The notes beneath the pieces were generated by a model. It had not been told where the DNA came from. It saw only the letters and a list, made by a program, of their open reading frames with translations, and did no database searches. The position numbers and the translations under genes were made by a program. A stretch of 64,000 bases of DNA from Candidatus Azobacteroides sp. (GTDB lineage: Bacteria > Bacteroidota > Bacteroidia > Bacteroidales > WRGA01): positions 5,177 through 69,176 of the forward strand of contig JAJQEC010000083.1 in the NCBI GenBank assembly GCA_021201815.1. The letters are read 5' to 3'. Of the stretch, positions 15,404 through 52,640 are shown in pieces (within the stretch, counting starts at the first letter, position 1; every line of letters begins with the position of its first letter).

Positions 15404-15736
15404 TTACGAAGAAATTTTCTTTCGTTTTTTCTTTACATATGCAATAAATAAGCCGGAAAAAATAAGTAACACCAGCTCCGGCGTCTCTTCAAAAGAAAGA
15501 GTATTATCCCCGCCAATCGGATCAAACCAGCTACTTGCCTGTGCTTGTTCATCCTGTGTGATTTCCTCTCCTGTTTCCTTTTCGGAAAAAAATTCCGTCT
15601 CTTTTTTTTCGGATTTTCTATGGGATAAGAACTCTTTCTTCTGGAAAGTATTATTATCCGGAAATATATTTTCTTCAGCTTGTATGGAAAAAGAAAAAAG
15701 CATACATACTATAAAGCATAAAAAATATGTTTTCAT
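15404..15736 (-). CDS. Small-protein family member S1 (signal peptide, acidic linker, SWFDPIGGD motif, PEP-CTERM-like tail)
   Basis: 110 aa. The tail is TPELVLLIFSGLFIAYVKKKRKK. Lies 47 nt downstream of the 1153-aa gene on the same strand. Confidence 0.65.
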   Translation of the reverse strand: MKTYFLCFIVCMLFSFSIQAEENIFPDNNTFQKKEFLSHRKSEKKETEFFSEKETGEEITQDEQAQASSWFDPIGGDNTLSFEETPELVLLIFSGLFIAYVKKKRKKISS

Positions 15737-15783: not shown

Positions 15784-18700
15784 TCAGAATATGGTTACCA
15801 TAAACTTATGGCGTTCGGAAGCATTTCCGGAGAATGACACTTCACAAATATATATCCCTGCTGCGGATAAGGGAAGCATAGTCTCAACCTCTAGCCGGGA
15901 ATGTGCCGGTTCCGATACTATCTTTTTTCCCTGTATATCATATACCATAATCTTTTCAACCGGTTGTCCTGCTGTTACAGAAAGGATTCCGTTTCTATAA
16001 AATACCCTTACCAGCTTATTTTTCCCGGCATCCGGATTCTCTTTTATAGAAGACAAAGAGCCTATATTTTTTATCCGGATCTCAAACCGTTCTTCCATTC
16101 CCGGATCATGTGTAAAAGAATAGGTGTTTTCCTGGTAGAAGTCTATTTCCTTGTTTAGTTTTTTATCATACAATACCAGGTCGGAAGTCGAAAGTTTTTC
16201 CGTATTGATAACCCGTAGTTTCATTTCTTCCTCCGTAATACATTTTATTCCCATCTGTAGAGTTGCTTCTTCCCCGAATATATACTGGATATCGTTTTTT
16301 GTGGGCCTGTTGTTGTCCATAATATACAACTGGGGAACCAACAAGTTTTCCTCGTGGGAGATAAACATTTTTTTTGAATTTTCCCCATTCTCTTTATTCA
16401 GAGCCAGCGTCACCATCGACTGGTTTGTGCCGTTTTCCGCCAGAAAGAAAAGAATATCCGGTTGATACTTGCTTCCCGTAGTTTTTAGCTGTAGGGGTTC
16501 ATTTTCCGGTCTGGTTACAGATGCCTCGGAAGGAAAAGAAATATCTACCGTATTTCCCGGCTGTATAGTCGATAGAAAGAATGCCTGTAGCGGTGCGATA
16601 TAGTTATCAAATAAAGGATTCGGGCCTATATGGTAATCGTAACTCTGAAACTGGTGATTTTCATACAGTTTAAAACTACTTTCTATTTTTCCTGTGTTTG
16701 CTTCATATAGTTTATCAAAATCCAGGGAAGAAACAAACGGATTCCCAATCATTACCTCTTTCCCTGCCGGCACGGTAATTGGAAACGGGTCCAGTGGATT
16801 ATTAGCATCATCCTCAAATACAAACCGGTATGCTTCGTCTGCACGGTAAAGTGTATCGGGTGTACGGGTGGAAAAAGGAAATCCGTCTTTCCCGTGGTAA
16901 AAGTAGCGGAAGGTACTGTATCCTTCCGTTGCGTTATAGGAATGAATGCGGTGCCGGTCACTTACAGACTGATTTTCAAAATAAGGAATTTCAATAATTC
17001 CTTTCAGTGCGTTGAGATTAGAATGGTCCTCTTTTCCCAATATCCCATATTCATGATGATCCACCAGTAGGGTAATGGCATAATTGGACGTAGTTCCCAG
17101 TTCATATCCGTTGGTCATGTCATTCATGGTCCAGCTACCCTCCAGTTCATCGCTATCACCGGAATTTCCGTCGGAAGAAGAAAATAACATCTGGTAGGTA
17201 AACGGATATCCCCCCAAGGAAAAGTCTCCTGAAGCAATTTTCTTTAGTGGCGCAGCCAGTGCATACCATCGGTTTCTTACCAATGGGGTAGCAGAATAAG
17301 CATCTCCGTCTGTTTTATATGTGTTGCCGTCGTAGTAACCAACATTATATTGAATAAATGCCTGCTTGTAAGTCAACAGCTGGGGTTTTGCTACTTCTCC
17401 TCCAAAATGGAAGTAAATCCTGTTGCATAGAGGATCGCCATACTTATCCCTTGGAGTATTCGTAGTGTCCAAGGATGGATAATTAGACGCGTTCCCCGGA
17501 ATATATACATCCGTACAATATTCAGGTACAAACACGGAAATACCCCCCGAGACAGTCAGCCAGTTTGAAGGATTGTTCCAGTTATTGTCCTCGGCAGCCG
17601 GATTCCAGGTCAATATATTGTCGGTTATCTCTATTTCACATGATAAGTTAGCCCGTTGTCCGGTAATAAAAACTACTTCCATTTCAATTTTATGCGTCCC
17701 TTTTGTAAGAGAGGTACTCCAGGTATGTATATTTCTTTTTGTGGTGTCTTCTATATCATCAATATACCAGTAAAGATAATCCCAGGACGTATCTACATCT
17801 CCTTCAATCACTGCTTCCAGAAGAATATCGTCACACACGGGAACTTGTTTTCCATCTATATGGTCGTAGGCAACTTCATTGACAAAAAATTCGGAGGCAC
17901 GGTTGATTTCTTTAAATGTACATCCTACCTGGTAATAATAGCTTTCTGCTTCTCCATACCCGTATCCCCATACCAGCATTCCTTCCGGATTGTAAAAAGT
18001 ATAATTCAGGGTTTCATCAAGTTTTACACGGATATAAGAATAACCGGAATGATGATCTGTCCATACCCCTGTAAGAGTAGCCCATGTCTCGTTGATATTG
18101 GTTTTCCATTGAGTAGAATTTTTATCACTTGTTTTTACTACTAAAATGGCATAATGCAATTCAACACTTGTTTGCCCCTGAGATACATATGCAGCCAGGT
18201 TCATACTTTCATTCAGCATCTGTTCTATCGGAGAAATCCATGCCAGCGCGGGATCTCCGATGCTGTTCCTTCCATTCAGAATTAACTCCTGTTCCGGGTA
18301 AGACCAGCCAACCATATACGAACATACGGCCACAGGCAGGTCCGAGGTGATATAAGCGCCAGCTTCCGAATGCCTTACAAACTCCTCTACAAATTCTCCT
18401 ACATTTATCGTATGTGTATTGTCACCGGTAAGTGTTTTCAGTGTAACCGTTGTATTATCTTCCGATGCTATGATTCGTATGATTTCAATTCCGGCATCTG
18501 TTACCGGAACAAAGAATTCTTTCCCCCATTTATCTACAGACACCATCTGCTCGAAAAGGTTATCCACGGCATTATATCCTACCGGAATATTTGTGCCATG
18601 GTTTACAACAAAACAAGCTACGGGCCTGGAAGCTCTGAGAAAAGTTCCGGTTAAATCTTCATTTAAATCACTTAAATGGCAATATACTTCTCCCTTAGAT

Positions 18701-19245
18701 AGGGTCGTTACAGGTTGTGGGGAATTATTCAGGAAAATATTTGTCCCGTCTTCTTCTGCAATCAATAAGAAAGAATCATAACTAAAATAAACCTCATTAT
18801 AATAATAAGGAGAATAAGACATAATATAATATCTTACTCCATAACTTTCTATAGGAAATACAGAAGCAGCTTCCGCAATCGAACGGGCCTGATTAAAAGC
18901 GTACACAAAAACATCCTCCGTAGAAGTTATTTTCAGGGACTTGTTTGAAGTTCCTGAGGCATCATTGGTTACCAGTTCTTTTTGATAATCATCCAGGGCA
19001 TACGTAATGATTTCATTTTCTGCCATGTGTATCTCATGGGAGCTATTGTCTTCTGTAAAAAGCAGGGTAACCGTACAGGCTTTAAGCGCTACAATACGAA
19101 CCTCCATGGAAGCCTCCTGACCGTTGTTCGGACCGAATGCGATCCAAAAATCCTTACCTCTTGTATCCTGTTGTGCATGAATATTGGTACAAAAACATAC
19201 AAACAAGCACAAAGCTGTCAGGTAAAAAGCTATATTTTTTCTCAT
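15784..19245 (-). CDS. Giant T9SS cargo protein (IgGFc-binding-like N-domain, shared central module, T9SS C-terminal domain)
   Basis: 1153 aa. Signal peptide, GKDFWIAFGPN start of the domain, C-terminal ...IMVYDIQGKKI...GIYICEVSF...KFMVTIF. Paralog of 54607-58038. Confidence 0.85.
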   Translation of the reverse strand: MRKNIAFYLTALCLFVCFCTNIHAQQDTRGKDFWIAFGPNNGQEASMEVRIVALKACTVTLLFTEDNSSHEIHMAENEIITYALDDYQKELVTNDASGTSNKSLKITSTEDVFVYAFNQARSIAEAASVFPIESYGVRYYIMSYSPYYYNEVYFSYDSFLLIAEEDGTNIFLNNSPQPVTTLSKGEVYCHLSDLNEDLTGTFLRASRPVACFVVNHGTNIPVGYNAVDNLFEQMVSVDKWGKEFFVPVTDAGIEIIRIIASEDNTTVTLKTLTGDNTHTINVGEFVEEFVRHSEAGAYITSDLPVAVCSYMVGWSYPEQELILNGRNSIGDPALAWISPIEQMLNESMNLAAYVSQGQTSVELHYAILVVKTSDKNSTQWKTNINETWATLTGVWTDHHSGYSYIRVKLDETLNYTFYNPEGMLVWGYGYGEAESYYYQVGCTFKEINRASEFFVNEVAYDHIDGKQVPVCDDILLEAVIEGDVDTSWDYLYWYIDDIEDTTKRNIHTWSTSLTKGTHKIEMEVVFITGQRANLSCEIEITDNILTWNPAAEDNNWNNPSNWLTVSGGISVFVPEYCTDVYIPGNASNYPSLDTTNTPRDKYGDPLCNRIYFHFGGEVAKPQLLTYKQAFIQYNVGYYDGNTYKTDGDAYSATPLVRNRWYALAAPLKKIASGDFSLGGYPFTYQMLFSSSDGNSGDSDELEGSWTMNDMTNGYELGTTSNYAITLLVDHHEYGILGKEDHSNLNALKGIIEIPYFENQSVSDRHRIHSYNATEGYSTFRYFYHGKDGFPFSTRTPDTLYRADEAYRFVFEDDANNPLDPFPITVPAGKEVMIGNPFVSSLDFDKLYEANTGKIESSFKLYENHQFQSYDYHIGPNPLFDNYIAPLQAFFLSTIQPGNTVDISFPSEASVTRPENEPLQLKTTGSKYQPDILFFLAENGTNQSMVTLALNKENGENSKKMFISHEENLLVPQLYIMDNNRPTKNDIQYIFGEEATLQMGIKCITEEEMKLRVINTEKLSTSDLVLYDKKLNKEIDFYQENTYSFTHDPGMEERFEIRIKNIGSLSSIKENPDAGKNKLVRVFYRNGILSVTAGQPVEKIMVYDIQGKKIVSEPAHSRLEVETMLPLSAAGIYICEVSFSGNASERHKFMVTIF

Positions 19246-20922
19246 GTTATATTTACTTAGGATTTATTTTAATAATATTTAATATATATTTTATGGATAA
19301 AATTCGGCAAAAATATAAAAAGATGTTTTTGAAAAATAGTGGTAGGAATTTTTCCTGTAAAAAATAAGGAGTCAATAGGTTATACCCTGATACGGATTGG
19401 TTTTAATCACTAAAAGGGTAACCTTCCATAGTTCCTTTAACCCGTTAGGGTATATAGGGCTTTGGTAAATAAAGGGTTGAAATTAAATGAAATAGAATGA
19501 AAAGGCCTTCCTGTGAAAATAAAAGGCCGAAATATAAAAACGGTTAAAGCTGAATATGTGGTTTTGAATAAAGAAAAAAATAACCGGAAGAACTGCCTAA
19601 GCAGAGACGTTCTGTTACCATATAAGTAATTCCTAACATTATATATACAGTCTATTTTTAATAAAATAGAGATAACTTCCAAATTATCAGAAGAAAAAGA
19701 GTTGTAATACCTCTTTCTCAGAGAATAAAATTTCATATATTTCCGCTCCGTTAACCTTACCTTAACTTACCTTACAATGCCTTACCTTATCTCAGGATAC
19801 TCTCTGTTCTGCAATTGTCGTTAATTGCTGGAACAAAATTAAATAAATATTTTAGTATACCAAATCTTTATGAAAATCAAAAATTATAATCGGTTAAAAA
19901 TTATTATTATTTATTTCAGAATCTAAAAAATGGATCAGGTTGATGCATTAAAATGTCCTGGTTCTTCTGCGGCCTATGCATTGAAGAGTTAACCAATGCC
20001 GGATGTTTCACCGGAAAAGGGTGAAATATGCTGATAAAAGATGAGTCGCATGCCAGGGAAGGTGTATCAAAAGTCTAATCCTCCTTTCATAAAATGATAA
20101 ATCCTAAGGACTGACCCCGGATGGAGTCAACTATGAATAAAGGCGGGTGAAACCCGTGGATGGAAAAATCCTTCACCTATACCCAACCCGAAAGGGTTCA
20201 ACCCCTTCGGTGTCCCCCATCAGGAGATTTTTAATGCGTAACCCAGAATTATTATTATATGGGATTTCAAATTCTGATAATCAACAAAGGCCGGATTAAA
20301 ATTGAAAATCAGCGGAGCTACATCCGGCCCGACGGGGGACCAGTACGGAAGGGAAGGGATATTGAAAAATCAACTACCATAAATAAATGCGTAATACAAA
20401 AAGATAGGTTAAAGAAAAAATCAAACACCCAAAAGATATTGAACAACATATTATACCCACTGTTTTTAAGTTTCCGGAGGTATTTTTGATTTATCTCCTT
20501 CATGGTGTGCAAATGGCACGTTCAGGTTATGAAACCGACGCCTTGAAGTTATGGAATTAAAGCCTTAATAGCATTGCCCGGTTATTATCAGGCGCACGTT
20601 TCATTACTATCAGACGCACGCCCGACTGCTGTCGGACGATAACTTGGAAGCTTAAAATATAAGACTTTATCACATCGTTTGTATAACCTTATGCTGGTGT
20701 TTTCAGGATGAATGAATCAAAATCAGTATCCTGGAAATTATCCAGTAAAAATGTGCTAGTATATTCATGTTCCGGAGAAGGAGTAGAAACTGGCCAACGT
20801 CTCCTATCCTTTCAAGACAAATTAATTAATTAGCGTCAACAACGAAGAGCCAGAAATGTGAAATAATAGACATTATTTCGTATTTCTGGCCCTTTATTTC
20901 TTAATCCTTCCGCATACCGGCA

Positions 20923-20970
20923 AGCTACGTTAGTGGCGACATGCACCAGCCGTTCGGCCTCAGCCCACAG
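20923..20970 (+). repeat. 48-nt intergenic repeat, copy 3 (solo)
   Basis: agctacgttagtggcgacatgcaccagccgttcggcctcagcccacag, about 75% identical to 4914-4961 with one indel. Confidence 0.65.
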
Positions 20971-21051
20971 ACTAATATAAATTATATAAAAACAAACAAT
21001 CGGGGAAAAATAAATTTCGAAAATATTAAATCATAGTTTAAAAAATATAAA

Positions 21052-21135
21052 AAAGGCCGGAAGTGGATAAGATAAAACAAGAGAAAAGAATGGTAAGGAT
21101 TCCTTTTTATTTTTATCTTACTTTTTCCGGCCTTT
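21052..21135 (-). terminator. Long hairpin terminator after the S2 gene
   Basis: aaaggccggaa..taagataaaa / ttttatctta..ttccggccttt (11 + 10 bp stems). On the minus strand it is followed by a T-rich run. Begins 7 nt after the stop at 21142. Confidence 0.55.
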
Positions 21136-21141
21136 CACTAG

Positions 21142-21537
21142 TTATGCAAGTGTATATTTTCTTTTTCTGCTTCTTAAAAGAATATAAGAAGCAGCAAGCA
21201 GGAAAATATATATCATAGCCTTTTTTGATGTCTCTAAAGAAAGCATTTTCTGAGGGGTACTTCCGTCGTCAATATTGGGAGGGGGTGCAGTTGCAGTTCC
21301 TTCTTCATCTTTCCAGATATCCGTGATGCTGCCGTTCTGCTGGAAAAATCCCTGCTGTTGCAAGGCTTTTGTTTTTCCCCCGGTGCTGTTTTCCTCTTTC
21401 TCATAGAGAATGGAAGTATATTGTTTTTTATCTCCGAAGGACACATTCTCTTCCCACCAGCCATAGATAGGACTGCTGAATGATAAGAGTATCGCCAGAG
21501 GCAAAAAAATAATTCTGTATTTATTCTTCTTTTTCAT
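21142..21537 (-). CDS. Small-protein family member S2 (signal peptide, polar linker, TM helix + RSRKRK tail)
   Basis: 131 aa. PPNIDDGSTPQKMLSLETSKKAMIYIFLLAASYILLRSRKRK aligns with the C-terminal region of S1 and S3. Lies 18 nt after the 297-aa gene. Confidence 0.6.
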   Translation of the reverse strand: MKKKNKYRIIFLPLAILLSFSSPIYGWWEENVSFGDKKQYTSILYEKEENSTGGKTKALQQQGFFQQNGSITDIWKDEEGTATAPPPNIDDGSTPQKMLSLETSKKAMIYIFLLAASYILLRSRKRKYTLA

Positions 21538-21555
21538 TTTTCATTTTCTTTTAGA

Positions 21556-22449
21556 TTACCGGTAAATTTTTTCCGTCAGCCTTTCCCCGTTAGCTGTCAT
21601 GGACTTTATCAGATAAATGCCTTTTGGCAGGTGATGCAAAGAAATAGTTTTTATCTGACTATGCTTTTCAATTATTCTTCCTGAGAGGTCTGATATTTCT
21701 ACGGCTGCTTCCTGGGAAAGAGATATATAGCTGTTCTCATAGGTCATGGTCAGTTTGTCTTTTTCAGTAAGTGGGAAAGTAGAAGGAATCCCCTGGTCAT
21801 CGGTCCAGATATAAATTCCGTATATGGCCACGTTTGTATTTGCACCGGAGAACGCATTTACCGGAAGGGAAGGAAACATCGGATCGGAAGAAAGCCTGAT
21901 AAACTTCGCATTTGTTACTTCCAAGATATCCGTTTCACTTATTCCTTCTCCCACAGAGCATGCTCCCTGAAAATAAAGGGGAGTATCGGGTATCATCCCC
22001 ATAAAGAGAGGCACGGTAAACCGATCTTCTTCATCTGTTGTGGTACTGTAGCCATAAGTCAGCATCCTGTTAGCATATCCGGTATTGTACCATCCACGGA
22101 AAGCAACATGGGTAATATTGGATGTGCCCGTGTTTTCGATCTGTATCCATGCATAATCTTTGCTATTTGTCTGGTTGTATGCCAGTACGGCAATATGGCT
22201 TCCGGTGTTTCCATCACAGGTATATGTATTCGCCTGCGTAATGGAAAAAGTATTGGAATCACCTGCTTTATCAAAAGTGAGTTTCACTTTACTCTGTGTT
22301 CCTCCTGTAAACTCATTGCTCCCTTCTGTAAAAGCTTCCTGAGAAAGGTTGATAATTGCAATGGTTGCCTCTGTAATATCTGTCTGGGCTGACACCCTGA
22401 TAAGGAAAATACTTCCCATAAGAAAAAAGGAAAAAATATACTTTTTCAT
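21556..22449 (-). CDS. Secreted protein with T9SS C-terminal sorting domain
   Basis: 297 aa. Signal peptide and C-terminus VEISDLSGRIIEKH...LPKGIYLIKSMTANGERLTEKIYR. Confidence 0.75.
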   Translation of the reverse strand: MKKYIFSFFLMGSIFLIRVSAQTDITEATIAIINLSQEAFTEGSNEFTGGTQSKVKLTFDKAGDSNTFSITQANTYTCDGNTGSHIAVLAYNQTNSKDYAWIQIENTGTSNITHVAFRGWYNTGYANRMLTYGYSTTTDEEDRFTVPLFMGMIPDTPLYFQGACSVGEGISETDILEVTNAKFIRLSSDPMFPSLPVNAFSGANTNVAIYGIYIWTDDQGIPSTFPLTEKDKLTMTYENSYISLSQEAAVEISDLSGRIIEKHSQIKTISLHHLPKGIYLIKSMTANGERLTEKIYR

Positions 22450-22487
22450 TGGTTATATGTCTTTGAAGTGAATATTCTTGTATTTCT

Positions 22488-25400
22488 TTATTTTGTATAA
22501 ATCTTTATTGTTCTGGCCGACTGTTCTGTCCTGGCCCTGACGATATACAGTTTATCGTTCCCTGTTACAACTTCCGTATGGAAATCATTTACAGCTAGCT
22601 GCCTGTAAACCGGTTTTCCCTGCAGATCATATACCTGCACTTCTTTCAGGGGAGTTCCGTCCACACTGGTAATCATTATTTTTCCGTTTACAGCCGTAAT
22701 ATCCACAGCAGTATGTACTACCGGATCCCTGGGTATTCCTGTGGGCATGCGTTTTTCAAACGAAAGGAAGAATCTATCCGTAAGGAATAAGTCCGCTGAT
22801 GTTTTTTCAAATTCATAGGATGGATAAATACGGATGTTGACCTGGGTCGGTGTTGCAGCATACATATCATTGAGATACATATCGTAATCCGGTGCAAACC
22901 GATTTGTCCCATCAAAATCCAGGCGGATAGTTCCGGTTTGGGAAGTACGTATTCCTATGGGTATTTGTTTTCTGTCAAGCTCCGTATCATGGAGTATGTC
23001 GAGAAAATTATTTTCTTTGTCCATCAGAAAGACAGAAACCGGCTCTGTTACTTCTTCCATAAATACTTTCTTAACAGATTGTGCCATCTCCTCATCCGAA
23101 CCGTTTTCATGGTATACCAGTATGGTCTTATTCTGCTGTCCGTTTTTAGAGGCAATAATGGAAAGGACATCCGGATTTATATGAATTCCGGTCGAGCGAA
23201 GTTTTGCTCCCGGTTGTGTCGTGGTCATGTAACCAAAGGTATATAACTCAGGGAACGGATTCTGTGACTCTACCAATACAGACTGCATGGGGGGTATATA
23301 TTGGGTGAGATTTCCGGTTGGGGGCACCCCAAGCTGGAACGTGATAAAGTTTCCGTCATCGGCATCCAGTACTTGGTAATAGTTCTTAATGGATGTGGAG
23401 TTATGATTATAGAACTGCTCAAAATCCCATGAAGCCATAAAAGGGTTTCCGACGATAGAGAGCTGGTTGGCCGCTGTCGCTGTGGAAGAAAGTGTAATTT
23501 GTCCGGTTGTATTATTTCTTGCCTGTTCAAATACAAACCGATGTTCGTTTTGCCTGTTGAGAGGAACGTGATAGTTCGGTCTGCAGTTTGTTCCATATAC
23601 GATATAATAAGGATCATTCTTAGGAAAAGAAAAGGCAATGGAATCATGGATGGTTTCATCCGGTTGCTTGTCGTCGATCCACAGGGAAAAACCTATTCCA
23701 CATTCCATGGCTACATCCGGCGTATGAAACGTCCCGGTCCAGTCAGCCGCCACATATTGTCCCGAATGGGGGTTCGCAGTTCCGAAAAGCCTTGTATATA
23801 CAAATACATCGTCATCGCATGGGTTCGGATCATGGACGTAATAATCCCCAGGATAAAAGTCCTGTAAAGGATTTGAAAGCATATACCAGCGGTTACTCAG
23901 TAAGGAAAGCTGCACATAGGCCTTTTCGTATATCAGGCTATCAGGATGTGCCACTTCGCCACCATGCTCAAAAGTAATGTTTGCACATTCGCTGTGTGGA
24001 TAATCATCATATTTCGTTTTGGAAGGAGACAGGTCGGGATAATTTTCTACTACATCGGGAATTAATACATTCGTACAGGCTCTTGGAATATTCCCCCGGG
24101 GATAAAGGGAGCTGGAAGGATTGTACCAGTTTTCATAATTATGCCAGTCCTGGTCCGCAGCTAGCCCTGTCCATATAAGAGAGTCCGGGAAGAGGTACAC
24201 ATGCACCGGTTCCAGTTTATTGGTCAGTAGCTGATTAGTCCCCTGGTCCCAGATCTGTATGTAATAGGTTTGCACCGGAGAAGAATCTTTGCATACTATC
24301 AGGGAATCGCCCATATGGATGGCCTCACTCAGGCTAGAAGGAGAATCGGTGGTATACCAGTAATAGTCATAGGTATCTTTCGGGGAGAGTTTTACCCATT
24401 CGCATGTGGTGGAGTCTCCGGGGATACTTTCACACATTACATATTCCCCGGTTACCAGGGAGATTCTGCTGGTCACATTATTGTAATACCGGCACTCTTC
24501 CATATCGTTCGGGTATTCTTTGTTTGCTTCATTCCAGTTCAGCCGGATTTCCCATTTCGTATAGGGAAATGATTGAAGCAGGGACGAAATATTGTTCAGT
24601 TCGTAAGAAATAGTCTGCTGCTGGTTCTGGGTAATGGACACGGATGGTTTGGTAAAATCTCCCAGCCACGTTTCAACAGCCGGTATCTGGTCCTCATCGA
24701 TCAGGAAAGTAGAGATCTGCAGGTTTCCGGTGTATGAACTATCCCCGCGGTTATTGATTCCGATAGTAATATTGAGCTTATCGGCTGCCGGGTCCCACAC
24801 CATCTGGTGCTGGAAATTTTTATCAAAGTACAGGTCAGGGCCATGGTGAAGGGTTTCACCTTCCGAATTCAGATCTGTCACCTGTTGCAGGAAATGGTTA
24901 AAAGGCCGGTTTCTTGTGGTACCGTCTTTGCTTACGAATTCCGTAGCCGGATTGACCGGGTATTGCGGAACGGTCAGGTCATCGTTGATATAGACCGGAT
25001 TATATCCATGCTGGTGGTTGATTGTCTTGCATTTGGCCCACTCATCGTCCGGATGACGGTAATGGAACAGGCGTACCTGTGCCCCTCTCCCGGCTACATC
25101 CAGTGCTCCGGAGACAATAATGTCAGCATGGTTATTCCTGTCAATATCTACAATTAACGGATACTCGGTATGAGTTGCAGAAAAACAGGGAAAGGTGATT
25201 CTGTTATTTCCGTTTTTATCCAGAATTCTCAGGTCTGTTTCATCGCGGTATACGAGTTCCACTTCCCCGTCCAGGTCAAAGTCAAACATAGACATGGTGG
25301 TAGCTCCGGAGGTATCGGAAGTTGTTCCTACAAATACCCGTTCAAATTTTCCGGTTGTTTTGTTATAACTGATTGCTGTCATTCCTCCTCCGTTACCACC

Positions 25401-26828
25401 TGCTGTCAAAGTAGTGCCATAGGTAAAACAAATCTCCGGTTCCCCGTTTCCTGTAATATCTCCGATAAAAGCCCGGGAGCCCATACGGGTTGTTGCTGCA
25501 TTAGCAGGTAGCGGGGCATCTGTCTGGTCAAGTAACAATCCTTTTTTAGGGCTCCATGCATACATTCTGCAGGAGGAGTTGTATGCCATCGTGTTCATTG
25601 CAGATCCGTTTACTACCACCACATCCGGGAATCCATCTCCATCGATATCAGCTACAGAAGTAAATCCGTCTATACGTATTGCGTCCAGTTGAGAGCTTAC
25701 ATAGGAAAGGACGCTCACACTATTATTTCCACTGATATATGCCGAAGCGCTCCGGTCTGTAATGATGGGTTTGTATACTGCGCTTCCACAGGCAATTTCC
25801 AGTTGCCCGTCGTTGTCAAAGTCAGCCATTACCGGCATATATCCATATCCGTTGGAAGACCACATACCACCTCTGGGGGCAGTCTGGTTGTTGGGTAACT
25901 TGTCCGGAAGGTCTGCCAGCAGATGACCTGTTACAGCATCAAATATCCGATCTCCTGCTACCACCTGCGGATAACCACTGTTATTTATATCTCCAATGAC
26001 TGGCGCAACAGAATTTCCATAATTTGGAGCCGGAGGAGTATTCTTAAAATAAGGATAAGAAGAGGTCCATCGGTTGCTCCATGTATCAGTGCCCTTATTG
26101 TATGCATAACAGCGTAACTTGTATCCATCGTCTTTTCCTGTGGCGATAATAATTTCACCAAATCCATCCCTGTCTACATCAGCAATCAGCATGGGGCATA
26201 TTGTCCATGGCTCTACGTTCGGGATTGAGATGGTTTTTTTCAGTGTCAGGTCCGGGTTAAAAATATAAATGGCATTACTATAACCGGCTAAATAATGGTT
26301 AAATGCGATGATTTCCTGCTTTCCATCCCCATCAATATCGCCTACAAGAGGCTTGGCATATCTGTACACAAACTCCTGAGTGTAGGCAATTTCCGATATT
26401 TTCCATGATGTAGGCGGTGGCGTAATGGCACATACATCCATTTCCATATTATCGGGCTTATCATTTACATGGATATACACCCAGGCTGAACTGGTATTTC
26501 CATTGCATTCCAGTTCGTATTTCAGGCTGTCTTTCCCGGTAAAGCCGCTTTGAGGAACATAGAGGATAGTTTTACTGCTCGTGTTCAGTTGGGGAGTGCC
26601 ATGAACCGGATTTGTCCCGATAGAAAGCCTGACCGTGCTTTCCTCGCATTCCCCCAATTCATCGTTGTTTAATACATTGATCAGTGCGTACGTACCCGGA
26701 GTGACAAATACATTGTCGGTATTTGCCCTGAAGGTGGATGACTGGCTTTTTACATAGGTTCCTATGGTTAGAAAAAATACAAGGAAGCCTGCATAAAGTA
26801 CGTTGTTGAGTAGTTCTTTATTCATCAT
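22488..26828 (-). CDS. Giant T9SS cargo protein with Ig/VCBS-like N-domain, FG-GAP/VCBS beta-propeller, shared central module and T9SS CTD
   Basis: 1446 aa. Eight DxDxDG-type loops (GDIDGDGKQEII, ADVDRDGFGEII, ADFDNDGQLEI, ADIDGDGFPDVV...). C-terminus VQVYDLQGKPVY...LYIVRARTEQSARTIKIYTK. Confidence 0.85.
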   Translation of the reverse strand: MMNKELLNNVLYAGFLVFFLTIGTYVKSQSSTFRANTDNVFVTPGTYALINVLNNDELGECEESTVRLSIGTNPVHGTPQLNTSSKTILYVPQSGFTGKDSLKYELECNGNTSSAWVYIHVNDKPDNMEMDVCAITPPPTSWKISEIAYTQEFVYRYAKPLVGDIDGDGKQEIIAFNHYLAGYSNAIYIFNPDLTLKKTISIPNVEPWTICPMLIADVDRDGFGEIIIATGKDDGYKLRCYAYNKGTDTWSNRWTSSYPYFKNTPPAPNYGNSVAPVIGDINNSGYPQVVAGDRIFDAVTGHLLADLPDKLPNNQTAPRGGMWSSNGYGYMPVMADFDNDGQLEIACGSAVYKPIITDRSASAYISGNNSVSVLSYVSSQLDAIRIDGFTSVADIDGDGFPDVVVVNGSAMNTMAYNSSCRMYAWSPKKGLLLDQTDAPLPANAATTRMGSRAFIGDITGNGEPEICFTYGTTLTAGGNGGGMTAISYNKTTGKFERVFVGTTSDTSGATTMSMFDFDLDGEVELVYRDETDLRILDKNGNNRITFPCFSATHTEYPLIVDIDRNNHADIIVSGALDVAGRGAQVRLFHYRHPDDEWAKCKTINHQHGYNPVYINDDLTVPQYPVNPATEFVSKDGTTRNRPFNHFLQQVTDLNSEGETLHHGPDLYFDKNFQHQMVWDPAADKLNITIGINNRGDSSYTGNLQISTFLIDEDQIPAVETWLGDFTKPSVSITQNQQQTISYELNNISSLLQSFPYTKWEIRLNWNEANKEYPNDMEECRYYNNVTSRISLVTGEYVMCESIPGDSTTCEWVKLSPKDTYDYYWYTTDSPSSLSEAIHMGDSLIVCKDSSPVQTYYIQIWDQGTNQLLTNKLEPVHVYLFPDSLIWTGLAADQDWHNYENWYNPSSSLYPRGNIPRACTNVLIPDVVENYPDLSPSKTKYDDYPHSECANITFEHGGEVAHPDSLIYEKAYVQLSLLSNRWYMLSNPLQDFYPGDYYVHDPNPCDDDVFVYTRLFGTANPHSGQYVAADWTGTFHTPDVAMECGIGFSLWIDDKQPDETIHDSIAFSFPKNDPYYIVYGTNCRPNYHVPLNRQNEHRFVFEQARNNTTGQITLSSTATAANQLSIVGNPFMASWDFEQFYNHNSTSIKNYYQVLDADDGNFITFQLGVPPTGNLTQYIPPMQSVLVESQNPFPELYTFGYMTTTQPGAKLRSTGIHINPDVLSIIASKNGQQNKTILVYHENGSDEEMAQSVKKVFMEEVTEPVSVFLMDKENNFLDILHDTELDRKQIPIGIRTSQTGTIRLDFDGTNRFAPDYDMYLNDMYAATPTQVNIRIYPSYEFEKTSADLFLTDRFFLSFEKRMPTGIPRDPVVHTAVDITAVNGKIMITSVDGTPLKEVQVYDLQGKPVYRQLAVNDFHTEVVTGNDKLYIVRARTEQSARTIKIYTK

Positions 26829-26987: not shown

Positions 26988-27101
26988 ATATATCAGGATA
27001 ACTGAAGTGAAAAAGAAAAAATAAATAAGGAATTGTTGGAAAAAAAGAAGAAATTTTCTATATGCGTATGCGCAGGTTAGTAATATTTTACTTAGTGAGC
27101 G

Positions 27102-27122
27102 TCTCTCTCTCTCTCTCTCTCT
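27102..27122. repeat. (TC)10 dinucleotide microsatellite
   Basis: tctctctctctctctctctct, 274-294 nt upstream of the 1446-aa gene start. Confidence 0.95.
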
Positions 27123-27714
27123 AACATAATTCGGCTAACTGCCAAATTATCAGCAGGAAAATTAAAAGAAAAAGTGTATGTCAGAGAATGAATAGTCATA
27201 TTATACAACCCGATTAATCCGAATACAATAGTAAATTTTAACTGATAGTTAATTTGAAGGGCAAAATTAAGTAAATATTTTAAAATACCAAAAATTATAG
27301 AAATTAAGAGGAAGAATTAAAAGATGGATGTTATGAAGGAAATTACTTATAACAGGTAATTAATCTTTTCAGAAAGGAAGATAGAAAGCTATTTTTATTA
27401 ATCGTTTTTTTCCATCCGAAATTTATAGTTGTTGATAAATATTTCTTAATTTTTTCCAATTATAACTGCTATATAAGGTTAGGTTAGTTTTTATATCAAA
27501 TAGAAATAGCTAATTTGTAATTCTTTTTGCATTCTTTTTGTTCTTTTTTTAATTCTTTTTTGATAAAAAAAATCAATCGTTAAGTAAAGCTAATTTCTAG
27601 GATTTTTTTTGTTTCAGGTTCCGGATTCTGCATTTTTTTCCTCAACTTTGCGTAACCCTTAAGCTTACCGTGAAAAAGATTCTAATATAATAATAATCAA
27701 TAAATTGTTAAAAA

Positions 27715-29310
27715 ATGGCGAACTTAGATTTATCCAAGTATGGTATTTCAGGGGAGTATGAAATTGTTCATAACCCTACCTACGAACAGTTGTTTCAGGC
27801 TGAAATAGATCCGAAAAATAAAGGATTTGAACGGGGAGTGGTTACTACAACAGGTGCCGTATCGGTGGATACGGGAATCTTTACCGGTCGCTCTCCTAAA
27901 GATAAGTACTTTGTAAAAGACGAAATTACAGAAAAAAATATGTGGTGGGATGGTACAATCAACCGTCCGATCAATACGGAGGTATGGGATTATTGCAAAG
28001 GCCTTGTAACGGAAAGGCTGGGTTCGACCAAAAAGTTATATGTCGTGGACTGTTTTTGTGGTACCAATGTGGATACCCGGATGAAAGTTCGCTTTGTGAT
28101 GGAAGTAGCATGGCAGGCACATTTTGTAACCAATATGTTTATCCGCCCTTCTTTATATGAATTAGCTAATTTCGGAGAACCGGATTTCGTAGTGATGAAC
28201 GGTTCGAAAGTAACCAATCCGAAATGGAAGGAGCACGGATTGAATTCTGAAGTATTCGTATTATTCAACTTGTCCCAGAAAATGGCAGTAATAGGTGGTA
28301 CCTGGTATGGTGGTGAAATGAAAAAAGGTATTTTCTCTTTAATGAATTTTTACCTGCCGCTAAAAGGAATTGCTTCTATGCACTGTTCTGCCAATGTAGG
28401 CGAAGAAGGAGATGTGGCAGTATTCTTCGGATTGTCCGGAACGGGAAAAACCACTCTTTCGGCTGACCCGAAACGTTACCTGATCGGTGATGATGAACAT
28501 GGTTGGGACGATAAAGGGGTATTTAACTACGAAGGCGGATGTTATGCCAAAGTAGTGGATCTGAGCCAAGAGAACGAACCGGATATCTGGAGAGCGATCA
28601 GAAGGGATGCATTGCTGGAAAATGTAACGGTAAAAGAAGATGGTACGCCGGATTATTCTAAAGAAGGTTCTAAAACCGAGAATACTCGTGTTTCTTATCC
28701 GATCTATTATATTAATAAGATTGTATTGCCATCAAAAGCCGGACATGCTTCCAAAATTATTTACCTGAGCGCGGATGCTTTCGGAGTATTGCCTCCTGTT
28801 TCTATCCTGGATGAAAATTCTGCTCAGTATCATTTCCTGTGCGGATATACTTCCAAGCTGGCTGGTACCGAAAGGGGTATTACCGAACCTGTTCCTTCTT
28901 TCTCTCCTGCATTCGGAGAAGCGTTCCTTACATTGCACCCTACTATTTACGCACAAGTATTGGCAGACAAAATGAAAAAGCATAATGCAACTGCTTACCT
29001 GGTAAATACAGGATGGAACGGTACCGGAAAACGAATCTCCTTGAAAGACACTCGTGCAATTATCGATGCGATTATCGACGGCTCTATTGAGAAAGCGGAA
29101 ACAGTCCATATTCCTATCCTGAATCTGGTAGCTCCGAAATCATTGCCGAATGTTTCGGAAGGTATTCTGGATCCACGCGAAACTTACGGAAATGTTTCCG
29201 AGTGGGAAGAAAAAGCAAAATCACTGGCTGCGAAATACATCAAAAATTTCGAACAATACACAGATACCGAAGCCGGCAAAGCATTAATTGCTTCCGGACC
29301 TCAATTGTAA
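27715..29310 (+). CDS. pckA: Phosphoenolpyruvate carboxykinase (ATP)
   Basis: 531 aa with kinase-1a [13 protein letters not shown] and the overall ATP-PEPCK sequence. Confidence 0.96.
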
Positions 29311-38980: not shown

Positions 38981-41407
38981 TTATAACAGGTTTCCGATTT
39001 TAAAACCAAAGAATACCGTTCTCGGAGAGCTTGGTCCATATATATAAGAAGGGTCCCGGTCTATTCCTTTATCGAAATCTTTCTGGTAACTGTTAAAGAT
39101 ATTTTTTATTCCGGTAAACCACTGGACGGTAACCCCACCGCTAAGTTTCATATTATAATGGATTCTGGCACCTGCATCAAAGAACGTATCCGAACGCCTG
39201 AGTTCCCCATCTGAATCCGGCGCAAGCTCTGTTCCGAAATAAGGAACAAGCATCCTTCCTGTGTAGTTTCCGGTAGCTGTCAGGCAGAAATCCGGAAGAA
39301 AATCCCAGTCCAGGGTGAAAAAACCATACGTATTAGGCGTACGGAAAAACTTTTTCTCATCGAAGTTCTCATCTCCCTGCTTGTATCTGCTGGACTGAAT
39401 AGTCAGTCCTCCGTTAAATGCTAATGTGGGAAGAGGCATTACCTTAAGCTCTATATTTACTCCTTGTACACTAGCTCCTTCTTCTGCATTTACACGGGTA
39501 TAAATTACGGTTCCGTTTTCATCCGGTTCACCGATTTCATTTCGGAAAGGATTATGGAGTTTAGTATAAAAACCTTCTACCAATAAGCCGGCAAGTACAT
39601 TTCCGATGTTTCTGTTGATATCAAAAGATAACGTAAAACTGGAACTATTCTCCTGTTTAAGATCCGGTGCGTTTTTATGAATTACCTGACGGGAACCCGA
39701 TGTTTCAATATGCAGGTCTTCATCAAATATCTGAGGAGCCCTGTAACTCCTGGAGAAACCAAGCCGGGTTTGTGCCCACGGAGTAATGTCATACATAAAA
39801 CTGGCTCTCGGTACAAATACATTTCCGGATTTATTGCTTCCTTCTGTTTGCTTATCCTTAATGGAATAATGTTCCATCCGGGCACCGGCAAGTAATTTTA
39901 TTTTCCCTAATCTGATTTCATATTGAGCAAAAGCACCCGTTGTAAGTAAAGATTGATCGGAAACAATGGTGTTGTCAATATGAGGAACAGAATAGATAGA
40001 ATCCTGCGAACCGTTATAATTAGGTCCGATTTCTGCATGCTCATAATCCGGGTATCCTAATTTGAGATCTTTTAAATAGGAGCCGGTGTGCTCAACTCCT
40101 CCTACTAGGAATGAACGCTCAAAAACAAGTTTATACTGAGCCCCGATATTATATGTTTTATCTTTAGTGTTTCCGTAATCGCTTAACGATTTATTCGCTC
40201 CATAATAAGAATCCCTGTTTAAGTATTGTCCGGATGCAAAAACAGAGAGCAGGTCACTTTTACGCAGATACTGTTCGAAAGTCAGTGCTCCTGCTTTCAT
40301 ATCATGCTTTACTGCTTCCGCCACATCTCTTTCGTGTAACGGATAATCCTGCATGTTGCCTCCATCCCTTTGCTCCCTGATATTGAAAAAATCCAGGGCT
40401 ATCTTGTTCCGATAGGAGGGACGGTGAAAGATACGGGTACCGATTACGGTATTTTTCATCGGGGCAATTTCAGAAAAACCATCTCCATTGGCATCAAATA
40501 GTTGTCTTTCCCTTAAGTTCCCATAAACAGCAATCCCGGTGTTATAATCATCCGAGACCAGAGAGGCATTAAAGCTGGCTGTATAGTCATTTGCCGGTCC
40601 ATTGGAATTACTTACTCCCGTACCTACAAGAGAGTTGCTGATTCCAGCCTCGAAGGAATTACTACGAGGTTCTTTCAAAATAAGATTCACCGTTCCGGCA
40701 ATAGCATTGGAGCCATATAACACAGAACCCCCTCCTCTCACAACTTCAATACGTTCCAGCATATTGGCCGGAATGAACTCCAGCCCATAAACGCCCGCCA
40801 GTCCACTGAAAATAGGTCGGCTATTGATCAGTATTTGTGAGTAAGGTCCTTCCAGTCCGTTCATCCGGATCTGGGAAAAACCACAATTCTGGCAATCGTT
40901 TTCATACCGTAATCCGGTACAGAAATTCAACCCTTCCCCAAGTACCGTTGATTGGGTGCTTTGAAGCAACCGCATATTTAATGTATTAACAATGACAGAA
41001 GCTTCCGATCTTTTTTGTGAAGTCCGGCCTGCGGTAACGATAATTTCATCCAGTTTAAGAGCATCTTCTTCCAGTAAAAAGTTTATTTCCCGGGATTCTC
41101 CTTTTCTGAAAGTTACTTCCTGTTCTTACGGTTTATATCCTATCCCTTCCGCAACCAGAATAAAAGTTCCTTCCGGTAAATTTTTCAATACAAAATGCCC
41201 GGTAGCATCTGAGAGAACACCAATGGTAGAGTTTTTAACAGCTATATTAATAAACGGAAGATGCTCTTCTGTTTTTGCATCTAATACATGTCCGAAAATA
41301 TTTGCATCTGTCGGCTTGCCAAAAGGTTCGGAAGTTTCCGATTCTTCCCCCTTGATGAAGCCGCAAAAAGAAAAGATACAAAAAAGTGTACAGATGAGTT
41401 TATTCAT
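38981..41407 (-). pseudogene. TonB-dependent receptor interrupted by a single in-frame TAA
   Basis: ORFs 41126-41407 (signal peptide plus CarboxypepD_reg-like domain) and 38981-40975 (plug plus barrel) share one frame (2427 nt = 809 codons). The only break is TAA at 41126-41128 (...GIGYKP*EQEVTFRKG...). Confidence 0.8.
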
Positions 41408-41560: not shown

Positions 41561-41914
41561 TTATAAAGTCGGAGGAGGACGAAGAAATAAAATATATATT
41601 TTTGTGTCTGAAGGAATTCTTTTATAAACAGGAATAAGCAATGTGCTTATCTGCTTCCGAAAGAATGAAAAAGAATAAACAAACACTATTTGTGCCGTTA
41701 CCGGAACAGAAGAAAGAATATAAAGGAGTTCGATTTCTTTTTGGGTATGCGAATGTGTCGCTCCTTCTTCCGATGAGTGGTACGGATGAGAATGAATAAT
41801 TATTTTTCCTTCATGGAAATGAGTATGCGAAAAGAAAAGAATGGAATATAAATGAATAATAAAAATAGCCGCTAAAGCTATTTCTATCATTCTCATATAT
41901 TTTGTCTTCTCCAT
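41561..41914 (-). CDS. His-rich small membrane protein upstream of the TonB-dependent receptor
   Basis: 117 aa. TM helix, then HTHFHEGKIIIHSHPYHSSEEGATHSHTQ, then two more hydrophobic segments. Confidence 0.5.
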   Translation of the reverse strand: MEKTKYMRMIEIALAAIFIIHLYSILFFSHTHFHEGKIIIHSHPYHSSEEGATHSHTQKEIELLYILSSVPVTAQIVFVYSFSFFRKQISTLLIPVYKRIPSDTKIYILFLRPPPTL

Positions 41915-51157: not shown

Positions 51158-52348
51158 TTATTTATTATTCTGGTTGCTATATAACTCTAGTTCCAGTGCT
51201 GAAATATTGTAAGAATACACAGCCTCGATATAATTACTCTTTATCTCACGGGCAGAATTCATGCTCTGGATAAACTGAACGACATCGGTTTCACTTTCCC
51301 GGAATTGTTTCCATGCAGTTTGTTCCAATGCGTCAGCTTCCGCCAGTGCTGCGGATTGATAGTAATGGATATTTTCCAGACGTTGGTTTAATACTATCTC
51401 CAGTTCCATGATTTTATTATCTAACTGGTAAAGCAAGTCATCAGCTTCTGTCCGGGAAATTTCATAATCAATCTTTGCCTGCCTGATCCGGCTTTTATTT
51501 GAAAAAAAGAAAACAGGAACGGAAACTCCGATTGCCCAGGAATCCAGCCTGCTGTCTGGAGTGATCTTTTGTCTTGTATATCCCACTGACAATTCCGGAA
51601 AGAGCTTGCTGCGTTCGACATTTACAAGTGCTTTCTTCGTTTCTGTCTGGTTCTCATAATATTCCTGATGAGTCACAGAGGGGAGATTATTTACATTCAA
51701 TACCGGATACAAATTCAGGATCGTATCTCCGGGAATTAATGTTACATCCGAATAACAACTCCATGCTAATCGATGCAGTGCAAGCTGTAGTTCTTCATCT
51801 GCCTGTATATTTTTTGTGTAAAGGTCTGCTGCCAGTGCTGTGATCATATTCTTATCCAGCAGGGAAATATTCCCTTGTTCATACCGGAGCGAACCGGTCC
51901 GGATTACATGATCGATCCATTCCTGATAATTACTTAGCAATACCTTCTGATGATACGCATACTGGTAGTAAGCCCATGCCCTTTTTACTTCCGCTGTTAC
52001 TTCTTTCTCCACCAATGCATAATACAACATACCTGTCCGGATTTCCTTTTTAATCAATGTATTTTTATAAAAAGGCAGCAACACATTTCCCAGAGACTGA
52101 TTGATCTCAAGCTGATGATCTTTTTTAGTGGGGCCATTGATTTGTCCCCATGAATAATTCAGGGAGGTAGCAGGAATATCCCATACTTCCCCCCGTGAAG
52201 CTTTTGTTTGTTCAATAGAAGCCGTTGTGGTTTTCAGCCGGGGATTGTTCCGGAGAGCAATATCTATCGCTTCATTCAGCGTAATCGTTTGCTGGGCAGG
52301 TACAGGAAACACAACTGCTGTCAGCACAAGAGGAAAAATGAATTTCAT
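51158..52348 (-). CDS. TolC-family outer-membrane efflux protein
   Basis: Start taken at the internal ATG (MKFIFPLVLTAVVFPVPAQQTITLNEAIDIALRNNPRL...). Two repeats of the TolC-like helical/barrel pattern. Confidence 0.8.
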   Translation of the reverse strand: MKFIFPLVLTAVVFPVPAQQTITLNEAIDIALRNNPRLKTTTASIEQTKASRGEVWDIPATSLNYSWGQINGPTKKDHQLEINQSLGNVLLPFYKNTLIKKEIRTGMLYYALVEKEVTAEVKRAWAYYQYAYHQKVLLSNYQEWIDHVIRTGSLRYEQGNISLLDKNMITALAADLYTKNIQADEELQLALHRLAWSCYSDVTLIPGDTILNLYPVLNVNNLPSVTHQEYYENQTETKKALVNVERSKLFPELSVGYTRQKITPDSRLDSWAIGVSVPVFFFSNKSRIRQAKIDYEISRTEADDLLYQLDNKIMELEIVLNQRLENIHYYQSAALAEADALEQTAWKQFRESETDVVQFIQSMNSAREIKSNYIEAVYSYNISALELELYSNQNNK

Positions 52349-52640
52349 CCAGCTTTTCCGTTTCCCTATACCGGTACTATTGACAAGTTTATAAAAAACA
52401 GGAATAATCAGCAGGGTAAGCACGGTTGACAGAAGCAATCCGCCTATTACCACCGTTGCCAGAGGCCGTTGCACTTCCGCACCAGCTGAAGTAGCGATAG
52501 CCATCGGAACAAATCCCAACGAAGCTACCAGATCGGTCAGGAAAACAGGCCGTAATAAGTGTGGACATCCTTTTGCAATTATGCGGTTTGTACTCATACC
52601 GTAGAGGTTTTGTTTTTTCAGATCATTGCTACCTTTTCCC
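52349..52640 (-). pseudogene. 3'-terminal remnant of a CzcA/HAE-type RND efflux permease
   Basis: ..LLRPVFLTDLVASLGFVPMAIATSAGAEVQRPLATVVIGGLLLSTVLTLLIIPVFY matches the last TM helices of RND pumps. About 90% of the gene is missing. It reads in frame into the TolC-like gene. Confidence 0.7.

Follow-up and report, generated by a model that had tools for sequence, protein, structure and literature searches.

Locus 1b of the Candidatus Azobacteroides sp. DNA analysed here (64,000 nucleotides of contig JAJQEC010000083.1, hereafter the window) holds three minus-strand genes that, judged by sequence and gene order, are one copy of a conserved, multi-copy adhesin cassette of termite-gut-type Bacteroidales. 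[quoted passage not shown] The two smaller products represent a new conserved small-protein family and a new family of ~300-aa CTD proteins, both strictly linked to one type of giant. Our search of the literature, which included FG-GAP proteins in termite Bacteroidales, found no published description of the cassette. The elements of the locus are as follows.

22488-26828, minus strand: the 1446-aa giant T9SS surface protein (open reading frame, ORF; Pfam, TIGR04183, BLASTP and module hidden Markov model, HMM).
21556-22449, minus strand: the 297-aa secreted protein (ORF; PF18962 and TIGR04183 above cutoff).
21142-21537, minus strand: S2, 131 aa (ORF; HMM built without S2).
21040-21136, minus strand: long intrinsic-terminator-like hairpin with U tract, beginning 6 nucleotides (nt) past the S2 stop codon.
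27262-27269, minus strand: candidate Bacteroidetes -7 motif TAATTTTG, a weak consensus match ~435 nt upstream of the ATG of the giant.

The three ORFs, the gaps between them (38 nt from the giant to the 297-aa gene and 18 nt from there to S2) and the terminator hairpin lie exactly where a first-pass annotation of this DNA had placed them. The hairpin itself (21051-21136) has a folding energy of -32 kcal/mol with a z score of -5.98, and 0 of 200 dinucleotide shuffles were equally stable. The Bacteroidetes-type -7 motif (TAnnTTTG) is absent from both gaps, and TAATTTTG is its sole minus-strand occurrence between 26829 and 27714; the motif is unenriched across the window (60 found against 75 expected) and constitutes weak promoter evidence. 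Because the gaps are this short and free of a -7 motif, and because one strong terminator stands past S2, the three genes fit a single transcription unit, and we infer that they are co-transcribed. The same features, together with the recurrence of the triad in other genomes described below, uphold the earlier proposal that the three genes act as one unit. In the 5' region of the giant gene, an (AG)10 microsatellite (27101-27121) separates the candidate -7 motif from the start codon. Phase variation through this (AG)n tract was considered and found no support, as the repeat number is identical in a contig from a second sample (L001; L numbers designate the loci fetched for comparison).

The giant consists of a signal peptide, a head and a long C-terminal module that it shares with two other proteins of the window.

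26472-26726, minus strand: Big_9 bacterial immunoglobulin (Ig) domain, aa 35-119 of the giant (PF17963: 26.8 bits, above the cutoff of 23.6; E 1e-5).
25029-26381, minus strand: FG-GAP (integrin-alpha-like) propeller region, aa ~150-600 of the giant (Pfam and eight Ca-loop motifs).
22491-24272, minus strand: shared C-terminal module, aa 853-1446 of the giant (BLASTP; module HMM, 656 bits).
15784-19245, minus strand: 1153-aa protein with IgGFc_binding N-domain, the same module and a CTD (Pfam, BLASTP, module HMM).
54607-58038, minus strand: 1143-aa paralogue of the 1153-aa protein, 47% identical over the full length (module HMM).

Annotation with HMMs confirmed the Ig-type N-domain and the integrin-alpha-like propeller that had been read from the sequence by eye, with Big_9, FG-GAP_3 (PF13517; four stretches, E 8e-25, 87.6 bits against a cutoff of 26.9) and FG-GAP (PF01839; E 4e-14, 52.5 bits against 22.1) all above their Pfam cutoffs. 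The eight DxDxDG loops that had been counted exist in a loose sense: eight evenly spaced Ca-loop motifs are found (aa 164, 217, 280, 336, 394, 457, 516 and 561; spacing ~50-64 aa), of which five are strict DxDxDG and three are degenerate. The propeller of integrin alpha has seven blades. The giant resembles the FG-GAP/integrin-alpha propellers in its repeated FG-GAP units with DxDxDG Ca-binding loops, and differs from them in having eight loop motifs and in the fusion of the propeller to a T9SS adhesin tail. Pfam detects no lectin domain in the giant; its Ig domain and FG-GAP propeller would be the likely binding head.

The module had been described as central. The shared part is instead the entire C-terminal ~590 aa of the giant, CTD included, which matches the 1153-aa protein in BLASTP at 9e-20 and 1e-15. 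In the PDB, a profile of 31 module sequences finds RemZ (8gl8_D, E 4e-33, residues 765-1113) and RemA (8gl6_D, E 8e-31, residues 1089-1435), the homology extending over the last ~330 aa from a GNP[FY] motif through the CTD to the final residue. The Trp-rich motif at the start of the module, W-x-G..D-W-N..N-W, is matched at RemA 889-936, and gingipain CTD structures are matched at E 1e-6. By these alignments with RemZ, RemA and the gingipain CTDs, the last ~80 aa of the module appear to be a type A CTD. The T9SS CTD attributed to the giant is supported in this way by the family profile, whereas the giant alone scores below the TIGR04183 cutoff (14.9 bits, E 0.019; cutoff 23); PF18962 is matched in 15 of the 31 module homologues. 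Apart from the CTD, the module is covered by no Pfam model, and its non-CTD part by no NCBIfam model. Since the module profile matches RemZ, RemA and the gingipain CTDs, the giant is, by homology, a T9SS surface protein that carries an Ig and propeller head on a RemA/RemZ-like tail.

RemA of Flavobacterium johnsoniae is a mobile surface lectin and gliding adhesin. RemZ and RemA were both trapped as type A substrates in the SprA-PorV translocon (PMC10994853), and RemA is described as an anchored, mobile surface adhesin of which part is released (PMC12618676). Like these proteins, the giant is a large surface protein with Sec signal peptide and homologous C-terminal region, the latter with a putative type A CTD; unlike them, it presents a head of Big_9 and FG-GAP propeller without a Pfam lectin domain, and the Flavobacterium remA/remZ loci have neither a small bitopic gene nor a ~300-aa CTD partner so arranged. 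A scan of one genome per species with the module yielded 38 loci, mostly in metagenome-assembled genomes (MAGs) of termite-gut Bacteroidales (EPI_MAG bins, Candidatus Azobacteroides, Dysgonamonadaceae, Tannerella, Parabacteroides), and the N-terminal parts of the proteins vary widely (FG-GAP, IgGFc_binding, Big_9-type and others). This work thus defines a large, previously unannotated RemA-like C-terminal module that bears many different adhesin heads in Bacteroidales.

The elements within the two partner proteins are the following.

21565-21759, minus strand: T9SS type A CTD of the 297-aa protein, aa 231-295 (above cutoff).
21247-21288, minus strand: S2 motif APPPNIDDGSTPQK, aa 84-97 (family alignment).
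21175-21219, minus strand: S2 TM helix, aa 107-121 (predicted).

The 297-aa protein comprises a signal peptide, a beta-rich domain of ~220 aa and the CTD, whose scores of 29.1 bits with PF18962 (cutoff 27) and 28.7 bits with TIGR04183 (cutoff 23) bear out its initial designation as a T9SS-CTD protein. With 11 positional homologues from other cassettes it forms a family of 12 members that align over their full length and all end in a CTD; the ~220-aa N-terminal part of the family has no match in Pfam, NCBIfam or the PDB sequences.

S2 is predicted to be a type I bitopic protein, with cleavable signal peptide (aa 1-26), a variable segment rich in acidic residues, the motif, one C-terminal TM helix and a positively charged tail (RSRKRKYTLA), and it lacks a CTD. 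Searched alone against 5.8 billion proteins, S2 returned only itself. The closest relatives of the giant (L003, L004 and L005) are each followed by a ~300-aa CTD gene and then by an S2-like gene for 124-127 aa, and a profile of S2 and these three syntenic homologues gathered 34 clusters, all named ones being 'hypothetical protein'. Family members share the layout of signal peptide, variable acidic stretch, FWEK-like motif, signature, TM helix and basic tail. The signature, DDDxKLYAPPPGExGNPQKIxxPLG, has PPP and QK as invariant residues, with D, L, A, G, G, N, P, I, P and L nearly so; because the 34 clusters keep this invariant motif, the family appears to be under purifying selection. An HMM built without S2 recovers it among 1578 ORFs (27.8 bits, E 1.6e-7), and because the alignment runs over the full length and includes the motif (APPP..DG.PQK), S2 is, by profile comparison, a real if divergent member. 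No Pfam or NCBIfam model covers the family, and scans with these two collections found no match to the PorP/SprF model or to the type B CTD (TIGR04131) among the proteins of the locus.

Conserved linkage carries the case for a cassette. Every S2-family member with a readable full context adjoins an FG-GAP giant and a CTD protein of 278-320 aa. Besides L003, L004 and L005, the triad is present at L041 (duplicate L042) and at L045 (with L046). L048 (1-16777) has three cassettes in tandem on one metagenome contig, the third ending at the contig edge before the small gene, and in L049 (4632-10297; EPI_MAG_00028) the giant is split into three ORFs with both partner genes intact. In L043 (9001-14796, with L044) the order is permuted, the small gene coming first, 21 nt before the giant. 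One more member, at L047, sits at a contig end with its upstream side unreadable. By the module HMM, the cassette giants of L003-L005, L041, L043, L045, L048 and L049 all carry the module. That S2-like genes might accompany propeller-type cargo in other genomes had been raised for this locus before, and the triad is indeed found in multiple other loci. Sequence divergence within it is deep: the giants are 41-47% identical over their N-terminal part, the small proteins of syntenic cassettes 21-26%, and the ~300-aa proteins 18-27% among themselves. Because the linkage survives both this divergence and the change of gene order in L043, it argues for the cassette as a functional unit.

A comparable setting is provided by Synergitannerella mixotrichae, a member of the Bacteroidales that lives as an ectosymbiont of termite-gut flagellates, for which many large surface proteins with Sec signal peptide and T9SS CTD were predicted and proposed to serve in attachment (PMC12483993). 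Its Ig-like-domain T9SS adhesins are alike in being large surface proteins with these two signals, whereas a RemA-like module, a three-gene cassette and small bitopic partners do not appear in the passages of that paper that were consulted (PMC12483993). It is plausible that the multi-copy, fast-diverging cassettes of termite-gut metagenome relatives determine how the cells attach to the surface of a host or protist.

The pairing of a module gene with a small bitopic gene extends beyond the S2 family. Over 480 kb (the window and a subset of the fetched loci) we filtered ORFs for a start resembling a signal peptide and, towards the C-terminus, a TM helix followed immediately by three or more Lys/Arg. 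The filter retained 22 ORFs; 15 of them are small proteins directly beside or near a module gene, and the other seven look, by eye, like fragments of multi-pass membrane proteins or like short ORFs that arose by chance. Small ORFs that combine a signal peptide with a TM helix and a basic tail begin 3-80 nt after module genes in L010 (109 aa, of S2 build, 24 nt after the module gene), L016 (108 aa, 3-nt gap, with YARPPEGG as a weak echo of the S2 motif), L033 (8100-8318; 72 aa, 71-nt gap, recognised by eye), L034 (3230-3433; 67 aa, 3-nt gap, with a second module gene right after the mini-gene) and L094 (8441-8704; 73 aa, after a RemA-like gene of a Cytophaga MAG). Tiny proteins with sorting-signal-like tails thus recur next to proteins with RemA-like tails across distant Bacteroidota.

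These data refine what had been concluded about the association. The first-pass annotation tied the small proteins to the shared module or to the secretion route rather than to one adhesin type. Association with the module holds at the level of the protein class, where the N-domains vary, while the family of S2 itself is tied to the FG-GAP giant and the ~300-aa CTD protein. The independence from adhesin type does not apply to S2, whose family stands beside an FG-GAP giant in every full context read. An association with the secretion route in general finds no support, in view of the small share of module genes elsewhere that have such a neighbour, about a quarter, and of the Flavobacterium remA/remZ loci, which have none.

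What S2-type proteins do can be approached by analogy. To our knowledge, dedicated T9SS partner genes have been recognised for type B cargo only, and the surface retention and hand-over of type A adhesins are only partly understood. We propose that S2-type proteins are cargo-specific bitopic accessory factors for the RemA-like-tailed adhesins of the conserved cassette, a reading to which we give an even chance and whose mechanism is conjectural. The CTD would route the giant via Sec and then through the T9SS translocon with PorV, and the 297-aa protein, having a type A CTD of its own, would be co-secreted. Cleaved S2 would expose on the periplasmic face a short, acidic and probably disordered stretch (70-100 acidic residues) as well as the conserved membrane-proximal Pro-rich motif, and its single TM helix and basic cytoplasmic tail would retain it in the inner membrane. 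There it might bind the giant, the ~300-aa partner or both in the periplasm, and hold the cargo or hand it over for T9SS export or surface anchoring. S1, S3 and S4, small proteins encoded elsewhere in the window and listed below, fill the same positional role for IgGFc_binding-type giants, but by sequence they form a family of their own that is restricted to one genome.

The cassette with its small partner is a variant on the theme of a T9SS adhesin plus a cognate accessory gene. In the pairs SprB-SprF and Fjoh_3952-Fjoh_3951, cargo with a type B CTD has its cognate PorP/SprF-like shuttle gene directly downstream (PMC12618676). As there, a cargo-specific accessory gene adjoins the T9SS adhesin gene and the two are conserved together (PMC12618676), so that the proposed accessory role is analogous in logic to that of the PorP/SprF genes. 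The accessory of the type B systems, however, is a shuttle protein that receives the type B CTD (PMC12618676); the cassette CTDs appear to be of type A, handled by PorV, and the cassette accessory is a protein of 100-150 aa with one TM helix, a basic tail and no PorP/SprF match. The recurrent pairing of tiny proteins with RemA-like-tailed neighbours offers a concrete handle on cargo-specific accessory factors, and it may bear on PID-CTERM and XrtF-type sorting.

Several points weigh against an accessory role. An anchor in the inner membrane cannot reach an adhesin at the surface; because it is out of reach, the interaction would have to be transient and periplasmic, unless the small protein were processed and moved. 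By our tally, only ~7 of 28 other-genome module genes with readable downstream DNA have a small neighbour, and ~650 kb covering Flavobacterium remA/remZ loci hold no small bitopic ORF. A partner as a general feature of RemA-like tails was rejected on the latter result, and both together are the reason why the partner is not taken as a general requirement of the module. S2 moreover diverges most within its family, scoring 27.8 bits where the others reach 86-162, and this could indicate relaxed constraint; the conserved linkage, too, could reflect en-bloc duplication of a young cassette instead of a functional need. Neither AlphaFold2 model was usable: the single-sequence model of the 297-aa protein reached a predicted local distance difference test (pLDDT) value of 41 and the module model, from a three-sequence alignment, one of 38.

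A first alternative takes S2 together with the other small proteins of the window.

15404-15736, minus strand: S1, 110 aa, small bitopic protein whose gene lies downstream of the 1153-aa gene at a distance of 47 nt.
54139-54549, minus strand: S3, 136 aa, small bitopic protein downstream of the 1143-aa gene.
53461-53916, minus strand: S4, 151 aa, small bitopic protein, in tandem after S3.

S1 to S4 might be a single homologous family that travels with the module whatever the head and has diverged past easy recognition. We consider this doubtful, though several observations speak for it. The four proteins share their build (signal peptide, acidic stretch, TM helix, basic tail) and their position directly after module genes. 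In phmmer searches among the 1578 ORFs, S1 and S4 find each other at ~1e-7 and S3 finds S1 and S4 at ~1e-3, and the small proteins of the other group rank next (E 0.03-0.3). The hhalign probability between the S2 type and S1/S3/S4 was 41% with four S2-type sequences and rose to 88% (E 2.8e-6) with the S2 family of 32 sequences, exceeding that of PID-CTERM mini-proteins of the same build (20% and 1%). The score of 39.2 lies above block-shuffled controls, in which the pre-TM, TM and tail blocks were each shuffled (25.3 +/- 4.0; 0 of 60 reached the real value). The match, however, spans 29 columns only, namely the TM helix and the tail, and shuffling the pre-TM block alone leaves the score at 37.1. 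The signatures YAPPPGExGNPQK of the S2 family and W[FV]DPIGGD of S1/S3/S4 (also given as W[FV]DPIGGD..F.F) remain unaligned. The S2-family HMM scores S4 at E 0.38 and S3 at E 37, and the 22 bits that it gives S1 stem from the signal peptide and the acidic low-complexity stretch. The S1/S3/S4 profile finds no further relatives in 5.8 billion proteins or, searched exhaustively, in 1.84 billion representatives, and the relatives of the 1153-type module in other genomes are all without a small neighbour. The resemblance between the two groups therefore exceeds composition; as far as the profiles tell, only the membrane anchor takes part in it. No demonstrable homology joins S2 to S1, S3 and S4. 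The first-pass annotation had counted S2 as a third member of one small-protein family, to be abandoned if the resemblance proved compositional with no significant profile-profile match. The common architecture stands, and the outcome comes close to that refuting case, in that the sole profile-profile match is limited to TM helix and tail while lying above shuffled controls. Within the tandem S3-S4 (53461-54549, minus strand), S4 is nearer to S1 than to the adjoining S3.

A second alternative, which we regard as unlikely, is that the small proteins are sorting-signal mini-proteins whose PID-CTERM/PEP-CTERM-class tail is cleaved by a dedicated enzyme (exosortase-like, e.g. XrtF, or other); the processed peptide, perhaps lipid- or glycan-linked, would then move outward as anchor or acceptor for the RemA-like adhesin. 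The L094, L034 and L033 mini-proteins (67-73 aa) have little beyond a signal peptide and a PID-CTERM-type domain. Their genes come directly after genes with RemA-like tails in MAGs of three distant lineages (Cytophaga, Mesohalobacter and Bacteroidales), and with the PID-CTERM model NF046080 (cutoff 26 bits) the proteins score 25.3 (L094), 18.3 (L034) and 26.7 bits (L033). The S2 family shows the same tripartite C-terminus as the PID-CTERM/PEP-CTERM class, with a short Pro-containing signature, here P-L-[GDN]-x-x-[DE], a TM helix of ~15 residues and a basic cluster, and hhalign sets its PLG against PID in register. As in sorting signals, its conservation peaks immediately ahead of the TM helix, whereas the remaining ectodomain varies in length and sequence, and C-terminal fragments of S1 and S3 weakly match Loki-CTERM and Heimdall-CTERM, below cutoff. 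In F. johnsoniae, surface colonisation requires XrtF, whose substrates are not known, just as it requires PorU and PorZ; mutants of xrtF, porU and porZ have colonisation and biofilm defects in common (PMC10936215).

Set against this, NF046080 matches neither S1-S4 nor S2-family members at E <= 10, as whole sequences or as C-terminal fragments, and the proteins P0005 and P0012 and those of L010 and L016 likewise have no PID-CTERM match at E <= 10. The hhalign probability between the S2 family and the PID-CTERM mini-proteins is only 20%, and the conserved S2-family motif, at ~25 aa, greatly exceeds the usual sorting signatures in length. The searched part of the window showed no sorting enzyme, and F. 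johnsoniae possesses XrtF, yet its remA and remZ are without mini-genes. A two-sequence alignment search for further PID-CTERM mini-genes returned only itself, and our literature search found no description of PID-CTERM. The more specific proposal, that the mini-proteins are substrates of a PID-CTERM-class, possibly XrtF-type pathway and that the cleaved peptide, modified and moved to the outer membrane, is the dedicated anchor or acceptor for RemA-like-tailed adhesins, we hold to be improbable. If true, such an anchor would join an exosortase-like pathway physically with the T9SS and account for the retention of some type A cargo at the cell surface.

That the small ORFs lack any functional connection, being generic small membrane proteins or non-genes copied along with duplicating cassettes, would suit the orphan status of S2 alone in the protein search, the restriction of S1, S3 and S4 to the Candidatus Azobacteroides sp. 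genome and the lack of a small neighbour at most module genes elsewhere, but it is very hard to reconcile with the purifying selection on the S2 family, with a linkage that outlasts permutation and divergence alike, and with the finding that across the 480 kb small proteins of S2 build occur only beside or near module genes.

Outside the adhesin loci the window is housekeeping (ATP synthase, tRNA synthetases, phosphoenolpyruvate (PEP) carboxykinase). An ORF-poor spacer of 1.9 kb (19246-21141) separates the S2 terminator from the 1153-aa gene and contains a strong plus-strand hairpin (20849-20890); a permissive Rfam scan of this spacer gave only chance miRNA-like hairpin matches. Neither Rfam at gathering thresholds nor ARAGORN detected RNA genes in the window, and when the ORF-poor spacers around the loci were compared by blastx with all fetched ORFs, no cassette remnants appeared. 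The PEP carboxykinase (27715-29310, plus strand) is at most 82% identical to that of any species representative, the best being a termite-gut Dysgonamonadaceae MAG; the species-representative collection therefore holds no close genome. Contigs of the organism were seen in only a few sequencing runs, SRR15221322 and SRR15221317 among them.

Two ORFs of the window are irregular. In a 479-aa ORF (51158-52597, minus strand), the final ~70 residues of an AcrB-type pump are fused to a TolC-like outer membrane efflux protein (OEP) domain; situated immediately downstream of the 1143-aa/S3/S4 locus, it looks like a truncated efflux operon. The ORF of a TonB-dependent receptor (38981-40975, minus strand) begins inside the Plug domain, which leaves no space for a signal peptide. 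Both irregularities hint that genes around the adhesin loci have decayed or been rearranged. Finally, a 117-aa His-rich membrane ORF (41561-41914, minus strand; ..HSHPYHSSEEGATHSHTQ..) lies just downstream of the gene for an 899-aa protein that, by its sequence motifs, looks like a P-type cation ATPase; the product of the His-rich ORF may be a putative small metal-binding partner.

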